Virus genome (UHGV): UHGV-1350822
Length of the DNA stretch: 38,999 nt
DNA from: a virus
Strand: one strand, 5' to 3'
Shown: positions 15,489 through 24,922 of the stretch, piece by piece
How the letters are laid out: each line of letters begins with the position of its first letter
Position numbering within the stretch: position 1 is the stretch's first letter
Program-made: the position numbers and the translations under genes
Notes under the pieces: model-generated
Database searches by the model: none
Seen by the model: the letters and a program-made list of their open reading frames with translations, nothing else
What the model was told of the DNA's origin: nothing

Positions 15489-15761
15489 TTACCTCGCTGT
15501 CAGTTGTTTTGATTTCCGGTAGCCTGCCGCGTAAATGGCTACGTTTGGCAGGCAAATACTTCCACTGCATTCATCTGCCTTCTTGCAGCGAAGGCTTCCG
15601 AGTGATGCTGCTTTATCTGCTCTGACGCAACCAGAGAGCTTTAGCGCAATTTTTCGTGCCAGTCGCTGCTCTTGCATTGCCTGTTCACGTTGAGCCTGTC
15701 TGCGTGCTCTGCGGCGATTTCTGGCGTTATCGTCAGCCAGATATGTAATGACTACTGTCAT
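15489..15761 (-). CDS. N: N-like transcription antiterminator (P22 gp24 type, arginine-rich motif)
   Basis: N-terminal ARM NARNRRRARRQAQREQ; C-terminus VAIYAAGYRKSKQLTAR resembles P22 gp24 ...ALYAAGHRKSKQITAR; strong GGAGGT RBS. Confidence 0.85.
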   Translation of the reverse strand: MTVVITYLADDNARNRRRARRQAQREQAMQEQRLARKIALKLSGCVRADKAASLGSLRCKKADECSGSICLPNVAIYAAGYRKSKQLTAR

Positions 15762-16514: not shown

Positions 16515-17231
16515 TCAAACCAGCCTTAGTTTTGTCTCAATTGCAACGCCTATAATCTTGCAGTTTCCATTGATTGGCACGAGAGGCCATGCAGGATTAA
16601 GTCCCTTGAGGTATTTATTTCCGCCGTCGATTATCAGCTTCTTGAATGTTGCTTCGTTAGAGTCAGAAAGTTTTGCTATGACCAAGCTGCCGTTGATCGC
16701 CTCCCTTCCGGTATCGAAAAGAACGAATGTTCCCTCTGGAATGCTTAACCCAACCGGTGCCGTCATTGAATCACCTTCCACTTTAAGCCAAAACGCATTA
16801 CCTTGAATATGCGCGTCAGACTCAAGCCAAACATCTATGTCTTTAATGGTGTATGGTTCGCATGCTTCACACCACGAGCCAGCCTGGATACTGCTTAACA
16901 CCGGATACCTCTTTCCTGCTCTGTATTCCCCTGCATACCTTACGTTGGCATCGCTCTTAAGGCTTTCTGCCTGTTCTGCAACCTTGGCAGCAATTGACTG
17001 GCTAAAATCAGCAATTGAGACTTGCAACAATCGTGCAAAACCAGATGCAACCTCAACGTTTAGCGCGTTTCTGCCATTAAGATAATGCCCTACCGCTCCT
17101 TGGGTGATACCCAGTTCATCAGCGATTGAGTATTGGGTTATTCCCAATTCTTTCTTTTTTGACTCATACAAAGCCTTAAGCCGCTTAGCGTCTTCGAGCT
17201 GTTCTGTCGTCAGTGATTTTTTATTTTCCAT
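16515..17231 (-). CDS. cI: CI-type prophage repressor (HTH_XRE N-domain plus S24 LexA-like autopeptidase C-domain)
   Basis: HTH QYSIADELGITQGAVGHYLNG; Ala-Gly cleavage site (SIQAGSW); Ser/Lys dyad (GDSM...FKKL). Confidence 0.9.
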   Translation of the reverse strand: MENKKSLTTEQLEDAKRLKALYESKKKELGITQYSIADELGITQGAVGHYLNGRNALNVEVASGFARLLQVSIADFSQSIAAKVAEQAESLKSDANVRYAGEYRAGKRYPVLSSIQAGSWCEACEPYTIKDIDVWLESDAHIQGNAFWLKVEGDSMTAPVGLSIPEGTFVLFDTGREAINGSLVIAKLSDSNEATFKKLIIDGGNKYLKGLNPAWPLVPINGNCKIIGVAIETKLRLV

Positions 17232-18164: not shown

Positions 18165-18992
18165 ATGGGGTATGTCTCTATACACCGCCAGTTTATGGAC
18201 AGCAGGCTCTATAAGGACTCTCAGGCAGTACATCTTTGGCTTCACTTAATCCTCAAGGCTAATCACGAATCTACTGTCGTCAATACGGATATCGGTCCGA
18301 TAACTGTTGATCGCGGTCAGATGATAACTGGACGCCCGTCGCTGGTCAGAGAAACATTCATCCCCGACAACAAAGTTCGGAGCTTATTACGGACTTTTGA
18401 GTCGAAAGGGATGCTTAATATTTGCTCGATGGGGAAGAAATTTAGCCTGTTTACAATCGTTAAATATGACGATTTTCAGGCAAAAAATTGTCCAACGGTT
18501 GTCCAACGGTTGTCCAACGCAAACCCCAGTAATGGCGCGGCTCTCAGCGGAGATTGTCCAACGGTTGTCCAACGGTTGTCCATAAACAATAATATAAATA
18601 ATATCTCTAATACTGACGTATTAGAGAGTGCCACAGCAGACAAAAAGTCTGACAAGAAAAAACCTTCCGTTAGCTGTCAGGATGTTGTCGATGCTTACCA
18701 CGAAATCCTTCCTGAAGCGCCAAGAATCCGCGCACTGAATGACAAGCGTAAAAACCAGATCCGAACGTTCTGGCGCAAAGCCGGAGTGATAACCCGCCAG
18801 CTTGACGGGCATGGGTTCACGATGCAGGACTGGAGAAATTATTTGAGCTACGTAGGCGAAAATTGCCGATGGATGTTCGAAGAACGCCCAAACCATCAAC
18901 GCGGAACCGTCTGGCACAAAAAGGGATTTGATTTCCTGCTTAACGACAATACCTACCTGAAAGTTCGTGAGGGTGAACACGATGACCGATAA
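18165..18992 (+). CDS. Replication initiator (lambda O / P22 gp18 functional analogue) containing the origin iterons
   Basis: Position after cII; internal iteron array; AGGAGG RBS before ATG 18165 (ORF track starts at 18102). Confidence 0.7.
   Translation: MGYVSIHRQFMDSRLYKDSQAVHLWLHLILKANHESTVVNTDIGPITVDRGQMITGRPSLVRETFIPDNKVRSLLRTFESKGMLNICSMGKKFSLFTIVKYDDFQAKNCPTVVQRLSNANPSNGAALSGDCPTVVQRLSINNNINNISNTDVLESATADKKSDKKKPSVSCQDVVDAYHEILPEAPRIRALNDKRKNQIRTFWRKAGVITRQLDGHGFTMQDWRNYLSYVGENCRWMFEERPNHQRGTVWHKKGFDFLLNDNTYLKVREGEHDDR
18488..18630 (+). repeat. Origin of replication: six 11-bp iterons (TTGTCCAACGG) in two clusters followed by an AT-rich segment
   Basis: Direct repeats at 18488-18520 and 18554-18583, then an AT-rich stretch to about 18630, all inside the initiator gene as in ori-lambda. 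Confidence 0.75.
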
Positions 18993-20418
18993 TTTTTATG
19001 CGCCGCCCCATAGCATCGAGGCAGAGCAGGCGGTTATTGGTGGATTGCTTCTGGATGATGACAGCAGTGAGCGCGTCCGGAAAGTTCTGGCGATGCTGAA
19101 GCCTGATTCATTTTACAGCCGGCCACACAAAATCCTTTTCGAAGAAATAACCAGAATGCACCGGGAGCAAAAGCCAGTAGATGGGCTGACGCTTTTCGAT
19201 GAACTGGAGCGCAAATCGTTAACGGCGTCTGTTGGCGGTTTTGCTTATATCGCTGAGATCGCAAAGAACACGCCAAGCGCAGCAAACATCGTTGCCTATG
19301 CAATGCAGGTTCGTGAAACCGCAATGGAACGCTACGCCATCAACCGCATGACTGAAGCGACGGAATTGCTCTATTCACGCAACGGAATGACTGCAACGCA
19401 GAAGTACGAAGCTATTCAGGCGATTTTCACGCAACTGACAGACCATGCAAAAACCGGATCGCGTCGCGGCCTTCGCTTATTTGGTGAGGTCATGGAAGAC
19501 TGGGTTAGCGACCTTGAGAAGCGATTTGACCCGTCAGGCGAACAACGAGGAATGAGCACAGGGATCCCATCGCTGGACAGGATGCTGTCACCGAAAGGTC
19601 TGGTGAAAGGCTCTCTGTTTGTCATTGGCGCTCGCCCTAAGATGGGGAAAACGACGCTATACAGCCAGATGGCAATCAATTGCGCAGTGCATGAGAAAAA
19701 GCCAGCTCTGATGTTCAGCCTTGAAATGCCAGGTGACCAGATACTGGAAAAACTGGTAGGGCAGAAGTCTGGTGTTAACCCGAATATTTTTTACCTTCCG
19801 GCGACAAATGACGCTGATGACGGCTATCAGGGTGATTACGATGGTGACTTCAACAGGGCGATCGAAACAGCAAATCGCTTGAGTGAAATCGACCTGCTTT
19901 ACATCGACGACACGCCTGGATTATCTCTGGCTCAAATCGTCAGCGAAAGCCGTCGAATCAAGCGAGAAAAAGGATGTGTTGGGATGATTCTGGTCGATTA
20001 CCTGACACTAATGACCGCTGAGAAAGCCGATCGTAACGACCTTGCTTACGGCATGATCACCAAAGGACTGAAGAACCTTGCCAAAGAGCTTGATTGCGTT
20101 GTTGTGCTTCTGACGCAGCTTAACCGCGCACTGGAAAGCCGAACCAATAAACGCCCATTACCAAGTGACTCGCGCGATACAGGGCAGATTGAACAGGATT
20201 GCGATTATTGGGTGGGGATCCATCGTGAAGGTGCTTTTGATGACAGTGTTCCGCCTGGTGAAACCGAACTAATCCTTCGTCTCAATCGTCATGGCAATAC
20301 CGGCACGGTGTATTGCATTCAGGCAAATGGCGCTATTTATGACACAGACCAACAGTCTGCTGAAATGCGCCGCCGTGAACGCGAGGAACCGCAGTCCAAG
20401 AAGAAAGGAGGATTCTGA
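18982..20418 (+). CDS. DnaB-family replicative helicase (P22 gene 12 type)
   Basis: Walker A GARPKMGKTT; N-terminal DnaB domain; start overlaps the initiator gene end, GAGGGTG RBS. Confidence 0.9.
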   Translation: MTDNFYAPPHSIEAEQAVIGGLLLDDDSSERVRKVLAMLKPDSFYSRPHKILFEEITRMHREQKPVDGLTLFDELERKSLTASVGGFAYIAEIAKNTPSAANIVAYAMQVRETAMERYAINRMTEATELLYSRNGMTATQKYEAIQAIFTQLTDHAKTGSRRGLRLFGEVMEDWVSDLEKRFDPSGEQRGMSTGIPSLDRMLSPKGLVKGSLFVIGARPKMGKTTLYSQMAINCAVHEKKPALMFSLEMPGDQILEKLVGQKSGVNPNIFYLPATNDADDGYQGDYDGDFNRAIETANRLSEIDLLYIDDTPGLSLAQIVSESRRIKREKGCVGMILVDYLTLMTAEKADRNDLAYGMITKGLKNLAKELDCVVVLLTQLNRALESRTNKRPLPSDSRDTGQIEQDCDYWVGIHREGAFDDSVPPGETELILRLNRHGNTGTVYCIQANGAIYDTDQQSAEMRRREREEPQSKKKGGF

Positions 20419-20455
20419 TGACCACCTACATCACTGAGCTAATAACAGGCCTGCT

Positions 20456-20486
20456 GGTAATCGCAGGCCTTTTTATTTGGGGGAGA
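20456..20486 (+). terminator. Rho-independent terminator (tR2-like) after the helicase
   Basis: 8-bp stem AGGCCTGC/GCAGGCCT with 8-nt loop, followed by TTTTTATTT. Confidence 0.75.
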
Positions 20487-20493
20487 GGGAAGT

Positions 20494-20820
20494 GTGGCTG
20501 ACTGGCAAATTCCAATCATCATTCTTGCCGGAGCTTCGCTGGTTGCTGGCTTTATCCTGCTGAAAAAGCATAAAGACCGTGATCAAAAAGTCGAAGTTCT
20601 CTATGGGTATCCAGCGAACAGCACAACATGGCTGACCATTTACCACTACCGAAAATCAGGCCGCTGGGTATTCGAATGGGATGATCTGTTCGCTGAAAAG
20701 CGATCAAAGTCATGGGGAGACATCAGCGAATGCATGATGTTTGAAGAAAGAAAATCCGGCGCAACTCGAGAAGAGTTTAACGAAGCGTGGGCGCGATTAA
20801 GTGAGAGAGGGTATTTGTGA
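20494..20820 (+). CDS. Hypothetical membrane-anchored protein (N-terminal TM helix), ren position
   Basis: 108-aa ORF; N-terminal hydrophobic helix IPIIILAGASLVAGFILL. Confidence 0.5.
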   Translation: MADWQIPIIILAGASLVAGFILLKKHKDRDQKVEVLYGYPANSTTWLTIYHYRKSGRWVFEWDDLFAEKRSKSWGDISECMMFEERKSGATREEFNEAWARLSERGYL

Positions 20821-21017
20821 GCAAGTACGAAAAATTAGATCAAAACATTCTTTCAATGCTGAGTGAAAGACCAACACCTGTTTTTGATATCTGGCTTAAA
20901 TGGCGGAGCAATGGAATGTATATCGAAACCATCGATCGCCGTATGCAATACCTGAGAAAGAAAGGGCTTGTTGCAAATGTGCGTGGGAAGGGTTGGGTGA
21001 AAATTAACCTGTCATAA
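20817..21017 (+). CDS. Hypothetical small protein, possible winged-helix
   Basis: 66-aa ORF; GTGA start/stop overlap with the upstream gene. Confidence 0.45.
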   Translation: MSKYEKLDQNILSMLSERPTPVFDIWLKWRSNGMYIETIDRRMQYLRKKGLVANVRGKGWVKINLS

Positions 21018-21028
21018 CGGGGATTGAT

Positions 21029-21295
21029 ATGGACGAATCAAGAAAGCAGTTTGAAGAATGGTTTGAAAATTACACCGGATGTGATCCTAAAAATAAAATA
21101 TACGCCAATATGGTTGAGATGTATTGGCAAGCGTGGCAGGCATCGCGAGCAGCTATCGAGATTGAGTGTCCTGGAAAAAGAGAGCGTGAGGCATTTTCTA
21201 CCGATTTCGAGGATGGGGTCACATTTGGTTATAACGACGCAATTAGTGAATGCGAAGGACGGATTCGCGCTGCTGGAGTCAAAGTGAAGGAGTGA
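21029..21295 (+). CDS. Hypothetical protein
   Basis: 88-aa ORF with RBS. Confidence 0.5.
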   Translation: MDESRKQFEEWFENYTGCDPKNKIYANMVEMYWQAWQASRAAIEIECPGKREREAFSTDFEDGVTFGYNDAISECEGRIRAAGVKVKE

Positions 21296-21297
21296 GT

Positions 21298-21462
21298 ATG
21301 AGCGCATACGAAGAAATCATGTTAGCCCTGCGATTCTTTTTCGGTGTGGAAGAAGATGAAAACGTAAATGAGATTATCGGGCAAGACCATGACCCGATAG
21401 GGACTATTGCAGCTGCACTTGACGATTACAGGAGCGTAAATGGTGAGGAAACTAACGTTTGA
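21298..21462 (+). CDS. Hypothetical small acidic protein
   Basis: AAGGAG RBS before ATG 21298; ORF track shows a longer version from 21250. Confidence 0.4.
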   Translation: MSAYEEIMLALRFFFGVEEDENVNEIIGQDHDPIGTIAAALDDYRSVNGEETNV

Positions 21463-21883
21463 ACTAAGAAGCCCCATCCATCAGCAGAACGCCATTCAAG
21501 CTATCCAGCAAATTCTTCCAGACCCAACCAAACCAATCGTAGTAACCATTCAGGAACGCAACCGCAGCTTAGACCAAAACAGGAAGCTATGGGCCTGCTT
21601 AGGTGACGTCTCTCGTCAGGTTGAATGGCATGGTCGCTGGCTGGATGCAGAAAGCTGGAAGTGTGTGTTTACCGCAGCATTAAAGCAGCAGGATGTTGTT
21701 CCTAACCTTGCCGGGAATGGCTTTGTGGTAATAGGCCAGTCAACCAGCAGGATGCGTGTAAGCGAATTTGCTGAGCTATTAGAGCTTATACAGGCATTCG
21801 GGACAGAGCGTGGCGTTAAGTGGTCAGACGAAGCGCGACTGGCTCTCGAATGGAAAGCGCGATGGGGAGATCGGGCTGCATGA
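21440..21883 (+). CDS. ninB: NinB (Orf-family recombination mediator)
   Basis: Near-identity to lambda NinB as recalled (…LTFE.RSP.HQQNAI.A.QQILPDPTKPIVVTIQERNRSLDQNRKLWACLGDVSRQVEWHGRWLDAESWK…). Confidence 0.9.
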   Translation: MVRKLTFELRSPIHQQNAIQAIQQILPDPTKPIVVTIQERNRSLDQNRKLWACLGDVSRQVEWHGRWLDAESWKCVFTAALKQQDVVPNLAGNGFVVIGQSTSRMRVSEFAELLELIQAFGTERGVKWSDEARLALEWKARWGDRAA

Positions 21884-22407
21884 CTATCAAATCAAATACG
21901 CCGGCACACGACAAGGACTGCTGGCAAACGCCGCTTTGGCTTTTTGATGCACTGGATATTGAGTTTGGATTCTGGCTGGATTCGGCAGCGAGCGACAAAA
22001 ATGCTCTGTGCGCTCACTGGTTAACTGAGGCCGACGACGCGCTAAATTCTGAGTGGATAAGCCACGGTGCAATCTGGAATAACCCACCGTACAGCAATAT
22101 CAGGCCGTGGGTGGAAAAAGCCGCTGAGCAGTGCATACAACAGCGACAGACGGTAGTTATGCTTGTGCCAGAGGATATGTCAGTCGGATGGTTCAGCAAG
22201 GCTCTGGAGAGTGTCGACGAAGTTCGCATTATCACTGATGGACGGATTAATTTTATCGAACCATCGACAGGGCTGGAGAAGAAGGGAAACAGCAAAGGCT
22301 CCATGCTGCTGATTTGGCGACCGTTCATCAGTCCTCGACGGATGTTTACTACCGTATCCAAAGCGGCATTGATGGCGATCGGGCAGGGCGTCAGGAGGGC
22401 GGCATGA
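21880..22407 (+). CDS. Orphan phage N6-adenine DNA methyltransferase (Dam-like)
   Basis: NPPY catalytic motif ([10 protein letters not shown]); ATGA overlap with the ninB stop at 21880 (ORF-track start at 21820 is unlikely). Confidence 0.75.
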
Positions 22408-24117: not shown

Positions 24118-24302
24118 ACGCCACAATTCAAACGATACCAGAGCTTCTTATCCAGACACGAGGCAATCAGACCGAAGTGGCGAGGATGCTTTCCTGCGCA
24201 AGAGGAACGGTGCTCAAGTACAACCGAGACAGCAAAGGCGAACGTCACGTAATAGTTAACGGCGTCCTGATGGTCAAACAGGGCAAGAGGGGGAGACGAT
24301 GA
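24114..24302 (+). CDS. ninH: NinH
   Basis: TIPELLIQTRGNQTEVARMLSCARGTVLKY...VNGVLMV resembles lambda NinH. Confidence 0.75.
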   Translation: MNATIQTIPELLIQTRGNQTEVARMLSCARGTVLKYNRDSKGERHVIVNGVLMVKQGKRGRR

Positions 24303-24922
24303 GACTCGAAAGCGTAGCTAAATTTCATTCGCCAAAAAGCCCGATGATGAGCGACTCACCACGGGCCACGGCTTCTGACTCTCTTTCCGGTACTGATGTG
24401 ATGGCTGCCATGGGGATGGCGCAATCACAAGCCGGATTCGGAATGGCTGCATTCTGTGGTAAGCACGAACTCAGCCAGAACGACAAACAAAAGGCTATCA
24501 ACTATCTGATGCAATTTGCACACAAGGTATCGGGGAAATACCGTGGTGTGGCAAAGCTCGAAGGAAATACTAAGGCGAAGGTACTGCAAGTGCTCGCAAC
24601 ATTCGCTTATGCGGATTATTGCCGTAGTGCCGCGACACCGGGCGCAAGATGCAGAGATTGCCACGGTACTGGCCGGGCCGTTGATATTGCCAAAACAGAG
24701 CAGTGGGGGAGAGTTGTCGAGAAAGAGTGCGGAAGATGCAAAGGCGTCGGCTATTCTAGGATGCCAGCAAGCGCCGCATATCGCGCTGTAACGATGCTAA
24801 TCCCCAACCTTACCCAACCCACCTGGTCACGAACTGTTAAGCCGCTGTATGACGCTCTGGTGGTGCAATGCCACAAGGAAGAGTCAATCGCAGACAACAT
24901 TTTGAACGCGGTCACACGTTAG
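24299..24922 (+). CDS. Q: Late-gene antiterminator Q (lambda type)
   Basis: 207-aa protein essentially identical to lambda Q as recalled, with the zinc-finger CRDCHGTGR...CGRCKG. Confidence 0.95.
   Translation: MRLESVAKFHSPKSPMMSDSPRATASDSLSGTDVMAAMGMAQSQAGFGMAAFCGKHELSQNDKQKAINYLMQFAHKVSGKYRGVAKLEGNTKAKVLQVLATFAYADYCRSAATPGARCRDCHGTGRAVDIAKTEQWGRVVEKECGRCKGVGYSRMPASAAYRAVTMLIPNLTQPTWSRTVKPLYDALVVQCHKEESIADNILNAVTR

Follow-up and report, generated by a model that had tools for sequence, protein, structure and literature searches.

Layout of the locus

Four tightly packed open reading frames, ORF1 to ORF4, lie on the plus strand of the viral genome UHGV-1350822 at positions 20494-21462 of the window, by which we mean the whole stretch of 38,999 nucleotides that was analysed. 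They are flanked by the tR2 terminator on the left and by ninB on the right (Table 1), and the 946 bp from the start of ORF1 to the start of ninB accommodate all four genes. The terminator comprises an 8-bp GC-rich stem and an 8-nt loop (hairpin 20447-20470), followed by the U-tract TTTTTATTT; the hairpin is also formed in an RNA fold. By alignment, the tR2 region is base-for-base the same as in lambda, P22, Sf6, and other phages, and existing annotation names it tR2 in Sf6, whereas the P22 record has a terminator labelled "similar to phage lambda." The original prediction, which set the genes directly after a tR2-like terminator, is correct on this point.

Table 1. Features of the slot between tR2 and ninB, with positions in the window.
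Feature	Position	Strand	Evidence and remarks
ninA-like 27-aa hydrophobic micro-ORF	20418..20501	+	phrog_5907, E 1e-17; left boundary sequence
tR2 intrinsic terminator	20447..20479	+	Terminator scan, RNA fold, identity to lambda/P22 tR2
Shared ribosome-binding site (RBS) GGGAGAGGGAAG	20481..20493	+	End of boundary sequence; alignment with lambda, P22, Sf6, Oslo
ORF1, 108 aa, GTG start	20494..20820	+	phrog_5903, E 1e-74; equivalent to Sf6 gp46
ORF2, 66 aa, GTG start, pI 10.2	20817..21017	+	phrog_7185, E 1e-34; equivalent to Sf6 gp47
ORF3, 88 aa, ATG start, pI 4.71	21029..21295	+	phrog_343, E 6e-29; PF26207 (Phage_phiTE_015)
ORF4, 54 aa, ATG start, pI 4.05	21298..21462	+	phrog_1603, E 1.5e-32
ninB/orf recombination mediator, right slot boundary	21440..21883	+	Pfam NinB, E 2.4e-54; phrog_72

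The terminator is spanned by the ninA-like micro-ORF: its ATG overlaps the stop codon of the helicase gene (TGATG), and its TGA overlaps the GTG start of ORF1. This ORF, which thereby links the helicase gene to ORF1, was absent from the original prediction. The Sf6 annotation calls it gene 45, with the remark "similar to phage 21 NinA," and also marks it as the boundary sequence bsq6; in P22 it is ninA, and its nucleotides are nearly invariant in an alignment of lambda, P22, Sf6, BTP1, Oslo, and HK022. The RBS GGGAGAGGGAAG precedes the ninB ATG in lambda and P22, and the GTG of ORF1 stands in that place in the window, Sf6, and Oslo. ORF1 thus uses the RBS that serves ninB in empty slots.

The genes are as closely coupled as had been claimed. 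ORF1 and ORF2 overlap by 4 nt (GTGA), gaps of 11 and 2 nt part ORF2 from ORF3 and ORF3 from ORF4, and ORF4 overlaps ninB by 23 nt. A purine-rich RBS precedes each of the four start codons; stop and start codons overlap or abut along the entire path from the helicase gene through the ninA-like ORF and ORF1 to ORF4 into ninB. Tight packing is the norm for nin regions (PMC8022706), where the genes are non-essential and belong to a pool of 30 to 50 (PMC5630979, PMC8022706).

Coding status and profile searches

ORF1 to ORF4 are real phage genes and not chance ORFs, because each matches one PHROG family end to end, dN/dS values indicate purifying selection (0.13-0.18 for ORF1, 0.20 for ORF2, and 0.13 for ORF4), and the alternative-frame and antisense ORFs (21038-21307 minus, 20473-20646 minus, and 21024-21287 plus) match no PHROG family. 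The dN/dS of ORF3 is uninterpretable, since non-homologous cassettes are forced into its alignment.

As originally stated, no lambda nin gene is recognisable among the four: they match none of the lambda/P22 families NinB, NinC, NinD, NinE, NinF, NinG, NinH, and NinX in Pfam, NCBIfam, or PHROGs. The flanking ninB served as positive control and was recovered in the same Pfam scan at the E-value in Table 1. Searches of Pfam, NCBIfam, and PADLOC gave nothing above threshold for ORF1 to ORF4, a precomputed PF26207 assignment for ORF3 aside, and sequence and profile searches of the PDB gave nothing at E < 0.4 for any of the four proteins. Below-threshold resemblances in Pfam, NCBIfam, and PADLOC (FG-GAP_3, DUF2627, HTH_Crp_2, Rrf2, chorismate mutase, and CARF) were dismissed as noise; the FG-GAP hint, which returned as a 569-aa repeat protein in a profile search, was judged a chance resemblance of beta-hairpin motifs. 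We found no annotated homolog that gives a function to ORF1, ORF2, ORF3, or ORF4, and no functional data in the literature on Sf6 gp46-48, on phiTE_015, or on the nin region in connection with anti-defence or toxicity. An Rfam scan of 20200-21700 was empty, and a repeat scan of the region returned nothing meaningful.

ORF1, a predicted membrane-tethered domain

In ORF1, an N-terminal membrane helix precedes a conserved cytoplasmic domain (about 80 aa) built of four strands and a C-terminal helix. The membrane anchor of the original prediction is upheld by a Kyte-Doolittle 19-residue maximum of 2.28 at residues 5-23 and by an AlphaFold2 helix at residues 5-27. Across the 22 family members that bear a transmembrane (TM) segment, the mean net charge is -0.6 in the N-terminal flank and +1.3 in the 12 residues that follow the TM segment. 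With one hydrophobic helix and positive charges on the cytoplasmic side, ORF1 is a predicted single-pass inner-membrane protein of N-out/C-in topology, which would tether the conserved domain to the inner membrane. The TM segment is absent in 22 of 44 family representatives.

ORF1 is about 98% identical to Sf6 gp46, with the same start. An exhaustive profile search of 1.84 billion representatives returned 37 matches, all of 73-149 aa and free of informative domain fusions, save two long repeat proteins judged spurious. The core domain (YGYP...EWDDLF..RP) is found in temperate lambdoids, in T1-like, T5-sized, and polA-encoding phages, and in a jumbo phage, either tethered to the membrane or preceded by a short amphipathic N-terminus. 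Its gene neighbourhoods are varied: homologs follow a replication gene of the DnaB, lambda P, or toprim type in lambdoids and DNA polymerase A in contigs of about 18-78 kb; in Shuimuvirus IME207, the homolog is the first gene of a helicase operon; and in the T5-sized phage KookSpook, all neighbours are hypothetical. The presence of the domain beside replication genes, and in many virulent enterobacterial phages, hints at a partner related to replication or host takeover; alternatively, adjacency to replication genes may merely mirror the gene density of early regions.

ORF2, a predicted stand-alone winged helix

The AlphaFold2 model of ORF2 (pLDDT 92.7) has the topology H1-b-H2-H3-beta hairpin, with helices at residues 3-14, 22-26, and 36-48 and strands at 52-55 and 59-62. 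Foldseek aligns it with the winged helices of Rrf2, GntR, IclR, and Zalpha proteins at TM 0.6-0.8 and probability 1.0, and nearly all of its best 50 PDB matches are winged-helix proteins or domains. The model follows the H1-(b1)-H2-H3-b2-wing-b3 order, and ORF2 is accordingly predicted to be a winged-helix fold that stands alone, as the original prediction had suggested with a "possible."

Compared with Rrf2/CymR, GntR, IclR, and Zalpha proteins, the modelled core is the canonical H1-b-H2-H3-wing, with TM 0.75 to CymR and 0.80 to ADAR1 Zalpha (1qbj); ORF2 differs in having neither an effector nor a dimerisation domain. Profile scores fall short of the Rrf2, Crp, and GntR families (HTH_Crp_2 13.6 bits against a cut-off of 27, Rrf2 11.8 against 30, and IscR 15 against 275), and the PDB profile search reached only E 0.55. 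A Zalpha identity was considered and rejected: the fold match is good, but BLASTP against an approximate Zalpha sequence gave no alignment, and a comparison by eye did not bring out the conserved residues of the recognition helix and wing.

Helix 3 of the family carries an invariant DRRMQ.L.KK motif (R41, R42, K48, and K49). From these residues and the high pI, we infer that ORF2, a basic stand-alone winged helix, most likely binds DNA. Among nin proteins, lambda NinH offers a precedent for a small DNA binder. ORF2 is about 98% identical to Sf6 gp47, again with the same start; homologs of 65-70% identity occur in Enterobacter prophages and Salmonella siphophages, behind unrelated tandem winged-helix/DNA-binding genes, and gp47-like mini winged helices are also carried by hundreds of large conjugative plasmids.

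ORF3 and ORF4, small acidic proteins

The description of the last two products as small and acidic stands (Table 1), and the net charge of ORF4 is about -11. Each would probably bind a host or phage protein. ORF3 belongs to PF26207 (Phage_phiTE_015)/phrog_343, a family whose name carries no function; the PF26207 assignment is a precomputed hit on a 100%-identical 88-aa protein (P0067) and on all of the at least 120 homologs listed, and the PGAP name is "phiTE_015 family protein."

Protein and DNA alignments reveal ORF3 to be a mosaic in its own right, in which nucleotide-invariant anchors at 21029-21058, 21134-21166, and 21263-21300 part two exchangeable cassettes. The two are exchanged combinatorially across the family, with at least 6 variants on the N side and at least 4 on the C side. 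The window carries A0+B0 and Sf6 gp48 carries A4+B3; the two proteins belong to the same family, but with these cassettes they are only 37% identical overall. The DNA is 99% identical to Sf6 up to 21166, the end of the central anchor, and the identity breaks there. ORF4 is 91% identical to BTP1 gp48, and Klebsiella phages with genomes of about 140 kb encode homologs that share 49-61% of its residues.

Slot contents across phages

We surveyed IMG/VR for viral contigs that contain the tR2 41-mer of the window, keeping redundant contigs; at least 120 loci have it, and at least 114 also have ninB downstream. Of the 114 loci listed, 66 have an empty slot and 48 a filled one, with inserts of 215-1232 bp, which agrees with the original view of a variable hot spot. 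The filled slots hold 16 ORF clusters (12 of them in more than one locus) in about 21 architectures. Among the listed loci, 31 have a member of the ORF3 family (35 by tblastn), 12 have ORF1, and 7 have ORF2. Slot contents also differ between Sf6, HK022, BTP1, Oslo, and E. coli prophages.

The four genes had been presented as one cluster, and here the survey speaks against the original prediction: they assort independently and are not a co-inherited operon or system. All four occur together in 1 of the 114 listed IMG/VR loci, and of 5426 E. coli genomes, 2005 match part of a 1.1-kb query and only 3 cover at least 80% of it. ORF1 is found without ORF2 in 5 of its 12 listed loci, in phage Oslo, in prophage L006 (a lambdoid), and with every homolog of the polA-type, Shuimuvirus, and jumbo-phage groups; ORF1 homologs in other lambdoids and in polA-encoding phages lack all of ORF2 to ORF4. 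Many E. coli prophages have ORF1-2-3 without ORF4, and the ORF3 family pairs with many other partners across slots. ORF2 directly follows ORF1 in 7 of the 7 listed IMG/VR loci that have it (E. coli and Salmonella), in Sf6, and in E. coli prophages.

Exchange breakpoints fall in short nucleotide-invariant linkers: one is the tR2/ninA block of 80 bp, and the others are the three anchors of ORF3 (5', central, and 3'). Each linker provides the RBS or start codon for the next gene, whichever that is. Short-homology recombination at these linkers would swap the contents of the slot. Mosaicism of this sort is described as driven by phage recombinases, which carry out relaxed recombination at short homologies (PMC3945230).

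Transcription

A simple consensus scan of 20000-22000, which may miss weak or non-sigma-70 promoters, found 0 sigma-70-like sites, against 2.3 expected in shuffled sequence, and a terminator scan found none after the cluster; the only strong terminator, tR2, lies upstream. The genome has N-like (15489-15761), CI, Cro, CII, and Q-like genes, and the GC content of the cluster genes (0.41-0.47) is close to the 0.47 of the genome. Through translational coupling, the four genes form part of the PR operon beyond tR2, and expression is therefore expected only in N-antiterminated lytic transcription. Transcription of the four genes would require N-type antitermination through tR2, and their products would be delayed-early in the lytic cycle, silent in the lysogen, and dispensable like those of other nin genes.

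Interpretation and alternatives

The region is probably a filled instance of a variable cassette slot that lies where tR2/ninA meets ninB, in the PR operon of a P22-like lambdoid phage. Such a slot, well known for the exchange of its contents, is mosaicism of the usual lambdoid sort and not a new system. The best reading of ORF1 to ORF4 is as non-essential PR-operon genes of the delayed-early class that are independent of one another, and each of the four proteins would act alone as a small binder.

One alternative gives the slot a sharper purpose: at least one of the four products would be a counter-defence or anti-exclusion factor, a functional analogue of Ren, or of Ocr and ArdA, which are small acidic inhibitors, and would neutralise host or prophage immunity early in infection. 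Hypervariability of the slot, the delayed-early and non-essential setting, and the small, strongly acidic character of ORF3 and ORF4 are all compatible with it; the exchange of two internal cassettes in ORF3 suits an arms race, and reshuffling between invariant linkers is possibly a response to variable targets of host defence or exclusion. We nonetheless consider this reading unlikely. ORF1 to ORF4 show no similarity to Ren among the Pfam, PHROG, and NCBIfam results, profile scans of Pfam, NCBIfam, PADLOC, and the PDB bring up no relatives, and nothing on the four families was found in the literature. Selection on ORF1, ORF2, and ORF4 is of the ordinary purifying kind, and the conservation of ORF1 and ORF4 among unrelated virulent phages speaks for a general target.

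Two further readings, the ORF1 core as a replication or host-takeover factor and ORF3 (PF26207) as a binder that switches specificity, strike us as quite improbable. Decidedly improbable is a two-gene module of ORF1 and ORF2, a membrane protein with a winged-helix partner or regulator, to which ORF3 and ORF4 would be unrelated passengers. The 4-nt overlap of the two genes and the constant position of ORF2 behind ORF1 wherever ORF2 is found in the listed loci, Sf6, and E. coli prophages are what such a module predicts; against it, ORF1 so often stands without ORF2, and the distant ORF2 homologs follow unrelated DNA-binding genes. We attribute the pairing to recent common descent, because both genes are 97-99% identical wherever they are paired.

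The architecture of ORF1, an N-terminal TM helix with a small cytoplasmic domain, invites comparison with phi29 p16.7, an early membrane-anchored protein. By that analogy, ORF1 would act early to keep phage DNA under replication, or part of the replisome, at the inner membrane, and four unrelated phage backbones do have its homologs beside replication genes. A membrane segment is missing, however, from half of the family representatives, in lambdoids the slot position itself imposes adjacency to replication genes, and the KookSpook neighbourhood offers only hypothetical genes; we hold a p16.7-like role to be very improbable.

We give almost no credence to the morons that the original prediction had entertained, or to lysogenic conversion, in which the prophage would express the cassette to the benefit of the host: the genes are variable and non-essential in a temperate phage, and ORF1 is a predicted membrane protein like many superinfection-exclusion factors, but morons are reportedly defined (Juhala et al. 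2000) by their own promoter and terminator and by expression from the prophage, and ORF1 to ORF4 have neither an autonomous promoter in the consensus scan nor a downstream terminator of their own, are chained into the PR operon behind tR2, have near-genomic GC content, and include two genes (ORF1 and ORF4) with homologs in strictly virulent phages.

The occupied-slot reading leaves current understanding unchallenged, and its value lies elsewhere. The slot provides a clean, quantified example of the exchange of small accessory genes among lambdoid phages; its map position is corrected to a place after tR2, and not at ren; and three widespread, cheaply testable hypothetical families are flagged, namely the gp46-like membrane-tethered domain, the gp47-like mini winged helix, and PF26207.

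Comparison with known systems

The original prediction assigned the genes to the "ren position," and here it erred. Lambda ren resembles the genes of the window in being a small, non-essential PR-operon gene between the replication genes and ninB. It differs in place: ren (40280-40570) precedes tR2 and shares its first bases with the end of P, and in lambda ninB comes directly after tR2, whereas the four genes of the window are downstream of the terminator, at the tR2/ninA-ninB junction.

At that junction, P22 and lambda share with the window an identical 80-bp block of ninA micro-ORF, terminator, and RBS; their slot is empty, with ninB starting right after the RBS, where the window has its insert. 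HK022 (gp58-60), BTP1 (gp45-48), Oslo (gp62), and E. coli ST131-type prophages have the same flanks as the window and are filled in other ways: HK022 has an ORF3-family gene (65%), BTP1 has an ORF3-family gene together with ORF4 (91%), and Oslo has ORF1 alone, while the other occupants in these phages differ and include DUF4752 and various small hydrophobic proteins. In Sf6 (AF547987), genes 45-49 occupy the same slot with the same left boundary (tR2/bsq6), and Sf6 gp49, an 84-aa protein like HK022 gp60, is replaced in the window by the unrelated 54-aa ORF4.

Four genes in an accessory slot

The region between the tR2 terminator and ninB is most probably a filled accessory slot in the nin region, of an ordinary kind, holding four independent, non-essential, delayed-early genes (ORF1 to ORF4) recombined at invariant linkers. 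These are real genes. Each start is preceded by a purine-rich ribosome-binding site (RBS), each product matches a PHROG family end to end, and dN/dS against diverged homologs is 0.13-0.18 for ORF1, 0.20 for ORF2, and 0.13 for ORF4; antisense and alternative-frame ORFs overlapping them matched no PHROG family. ORF coordinates, overlaps, and a terminator scan agree with the original prediction of four coupled plus-strand ORFs behind a tR2-like terminator, and none has a nin-family identity. The first two genes share 4 nt, 11 nt separate ORF2 from ORF3 and 2 nt separate ORF3 from ORF4, and ORF4 runs 23 nt into ninB. Published work puts the nin gene pool at 30-50 genes and describes its members as non-essential and packed exceptionally closely (PMC5630979, PMC8022706), so the tight coupling is what this region normally shows.

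Features of the window and of comparison loci (window coordinates unless a locus is named)
Feature	Coordinates	Strand	Remarks
N-like antiterminator	15489-15761	-
CI	16515-17231	-
Six 11-bp iterons in the O-like initiator gene	18476-18593		TTGTCCAACGG
DnaB-type helicase	18967-20418
ninA-like ORF	20418-20501		27 aa, hydrophobic; phrog_5907
Intrinsic terminator (tR2)	20447-20479		8-bp GC-rich stem, 8-nt loop, U-tract
ORF1	20494-20820	+	108 aa, GTG start
ORF2	20817-21017	+	66 aa, GTG start
ORF3	21029-21295	+	88 aa, ATG start
ORF3 anchors	21029-21058; 21134-21166; 21263-21300
ORF4	21298-21462	+	54 aa, ATG start
ninB	21440-21883	+	follows ORF4
Dam-like methyltransferase	21820-22407		phrog_111, E 1e-88
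Q-like antiterminator	24299-24922
Upstream winged-helix genes	L014 3336-4004; L015 3552-4004; L006 3651-4004		Enterobacter/other lambdoid prophages
ORF2-like mini winged-helix genes	L142 3001-3210; L141 2501-2692		Klebsiella plasmid NZ_CP085199; Salmonella phage NX263
ORF1 core domain genes	L008-L013 4001-4312 or 4001-4303 (L010 2111-2422); L143 2962-3225
ORF1 core domain gene, phage Goslar	MK327938 180280-180516

The 38,999-bp window is a complete-looking P22-like (Lederbergvirus-type) genome with the usual lambdoid early-right operon, which also encodes Cro, CII, and an Ant/Roi-like protein. Its nearest phages in the collection are phiv205-1, CUS-3, E212, Kapi1, and HK620, at ~95-96% identity, with coverage of only 54-65% of the right 25 kb. 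The Dam-like methyltransferase gene follows ninB; because the mechanical start overlaps ninB by 64 nt, the gene probably begins close to the ninB stop (~21880).

Position and expression

The original prediction overlooked a ninA-like ORF that runs through the tR2 hairpin; its ATG overlaps the helicase stop (TGATG), and its stop overlaps the ORF1 start. When the region around the terminator is aligned across the window, lambda, P22, Sf6, HK022, BTP1, and Oslo, a block comprising the ninA ORF, hairpin, U-tract, and GGGAGAGGGAAG (the RBS) is essentially invariant. This RBS is immediately followed by the ninB ATG in lambda and P22 but by the ORF1 GTG in the window, Sf6, and Oslo. The annotated order is gene 12, ninA with the terminator, ninB in P22, and P, ren, a 73-bp spacer, ninB in lambda, where ren (40280-40570) precedes the tR2 block. 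The ren position first proposed for the cluster is therefore incorrect: the genes are inserted at the tR2/ninA-ninB junction, which the Sf6 record labels as boundary sequence bsq6. Lambda carries the same ninA-like ORF, unannotated, with ATGA overlaps to ren and ninB. The block seems to be conserved as DNA or RNA (terminator, RBS, and recombination linker) more than as protein, because there is almost no synonymous variation among lambda, P22, Sf6, BTP1, and Oslo.

A scan of 20000-22000 found no promoter-like sites, against 2.3 expected in shuffles; the sole strong terminator, tR2, is upstream; and translation is chained from helicase through the ninA-like ORF and ORF1 to ORF4 into ninB. From these features we infer that the four genes would be delayed-early PR products, made only with N-like antitermination at tR2, and would not be expressed in the lysogen. 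A moron would be expected to behave in the opposite way, and we drop that label.

Slot contents among relatives

The occupants differ among annotated relatives: gp46, gp47, gp48, and gp49 in Sf6; gp58-60 in HK022; a DUF4752 protein, two hypothetical proteins (one of the ORF3 family), and an ORF4-like protein in BTP1; and ORF1 alone in Oslo. ST131-type E. coli prophages carry ORF1-ORF2-ORF3 and then ninB, and E. coli EC01307 carries ORF1-ORF2, a different ORF3 allele, and ORF4. Part of a 1.1-kb query is matched in 2005 of 5426 complete E. coli genomes, with at least 80% covered in only 3. Scanning IMG/VR with a tR2 41-mer, near-identical entries kept, gave at least 120 loci; of the 120 listed, 114 have ninB downstream. 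Among these 114, the slot is empty in 66 (ninB starts 4-8 nt past the pattern) and filled in 48 by inserts of 215-1232 bp, with 16 ORF clusters (12 in more than one locus) and ~21 filled arrangements. The expected variable hot spot is thus evident. Many alternative occupants in the listed loci (L021-L140) are very small hydrophobic proteins: a 37-68-aa family, for example, occurs in 23 of the 48 filled slots, and there are 60-, 63-, and 93-aa membrane-like ORFs; ORF calling for these was crude, and some may be spurious.

The "four-gene cluster" does not hold as a unit: all four genes occur together in one of the 114 listed loci. The ORF3 family is present in 31 (35 by tblastn), ORF1 in 12, and ORF2 in 7. 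Distant homologs confirm the apparent independence. ORF1 relatives (44-58% identity) occur without ORF2 to ORF4, one in a lambdoid prophage behind a lambda-P-type gene, the others directly after polA in DNA-polymerase-A-encoding contigs of ~18-78 kb. ORF2 relatives (65-70% identity), in Enterobacter prophages and Salmonella siphophages, lie behind unrelated tandem winged-helix/ParB-like DNA-binding genes with overlapping stop and start codons.

That one or more of the four genes acts in counter-defence, in keeping with the anti-exclusion functions first suggested for the site, is unlikely; none has a PADLOC match or a PDB relative by sequence. Still less likely is an ORF1-ORF2 module: although ORF2 follows ORF1 in each of its 7 listed loci, the relatives of each gene occur apart.

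ORF3 mosaicism

Independent genes exchanged at linkers, the reading we prefer, have a counterpart within ORF3, a member of PF26207 (Phage_phiTE_015) and phrog_343, families without assigned function. Three segments are conserved at the protein level in E. coli, Shigella, Salmonella, and Enterobacter phages: MDESRKQFE at the N-terminus and IRAAG[VI]KVKE at the C-terminus, both invariant, and W.AWQASRAAIEI in the centre. The two segments between them exist in versions that cannot be aligned, at least 6 for the first and at least 4 for the second, and these are combined differently. In DNA, the anchors are almost without synonymous change, and the sequence between them is unalignable; Sf6, the best match for the four-gene region, is 99% identical exactly to the end of the central anchor (21166). 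ORF3 is thus an intragenic mosaic. The RBS and ATG of the gene that follows lie within the 3' anchor, and the linkers also guarantee translation of whichever gene arrives downstream. Cassettes would be swapped by recombination across short identical linkers, consistent with the relaxed short-homology recombination described for temperate-phage recombinases (PMC3945230).

Features of the encoded proteins

The predicted transmembrane (TM) anchor of ORF1 is borne out by a strongly hydrophobic segment (KD19 2.28, residues 5-23) and an AF2 model (pLDDT 82.9) that combines a TM helix (residues 5-27) with four strands and a helix at the C-terminus. An exhaustive profile search of 1.84 billion representatives returned 37 proteins; two long repeat proteins were judged spurious, and the remainder, all 73-149 aa, have no informative extra domain. 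The family's invariant core reads VLYGYP..W.T.YH...FE.DDLF..R. Jumbo phage Goslar, T5-sized KookSpook, Shuimuvirus IME207, Seszw, and polA phages encode homologs; the ORF1-type gene is first in the helicase operon of IME207 and Seszw. The core domain is thus found in unrelated virulent phages, and in polA phages its gene comes immediately behind that for DNA polymerase A. Of 44 family representatives, half begin with a TM segment, whose acidic N flank and basic C flank fit an N-out/C-in topology; in the other half, the N-terminus is only short and amphipathic or basic. Together these features argue for a conserved domain that works in the cytoplasm. The pattern C...H...CxxC in one four-cysteine subfamily is suggestive of zinc binding. 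Because homologs repeatedly adjoin replication genes, there is a weak hint of a replication-related or host-takeover partner; a membrane-tethering role analogous to that of phi29 p16.7 is improbable, the TM segment being confined to half of the family.

ORF2 was anticipated to be a winged helix, and its AF2 model (pLDDT 92.7) has the canonical predicted fold. Foldseek matches in the PDB are almost only winged-helix proteins or domains (CymR/Rrf2, GntR, IclR, BirA, Zalpha; TM 0.6-0.8, probability ~1, E 0.01-0.08). Sequence profiles scored far below family cut-offs, and BLASTP gave no alignment with an approximate Zalpha query sequence. A pI of 10.2 and an invariant DRRMQ.L.KK in helix 3 fit a DNA-recognition helix, and ORF2 may bind DNA. 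Relatives at 30-37% identity occur in 578 large, mostly conjugative plasmids of Klebsiella, Citrobacter, and Raoultella and in many siphophages. In siphophages, they lie between a ParB-like/DNA-binding gene and a small MarR-like gene, with a pol III beta-like gene nearby. Small winged-helix proteins are recurrent between replication genes and ninB, because tandem MarR/IclR-like winged-helix repeats (one to three) are encoded just upstream of an ORF2- or ORF1-like gene in Enterobacter and other lambdoid prophages.

ORF3 (pI 4.71) and ORF4 (pI 4.05) are acidic, as foreseen. ORF4 belongs to phrog_1603; it shares 91% identity with BTP1 gp48 and 49-61% with proteins of ~140-kb Klebsiella phages.

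Comparison with known systems

The iterons form two groups of three repeats within the O-like initiator gene; the Sf6 annotation places a putative origin at the corresponding site in gene 43, and the same repeat unit is reported for phage L (PMC8022706). Hypothetical proteins 91-100% identical to the four have long been on deposit, and existing annotation already marks the slot as mosaic, so a finding of this kind is not new. The ORF3 anchors and the 80-bp tR2 block behave like the "boundary sequences" annotated in Sf6.
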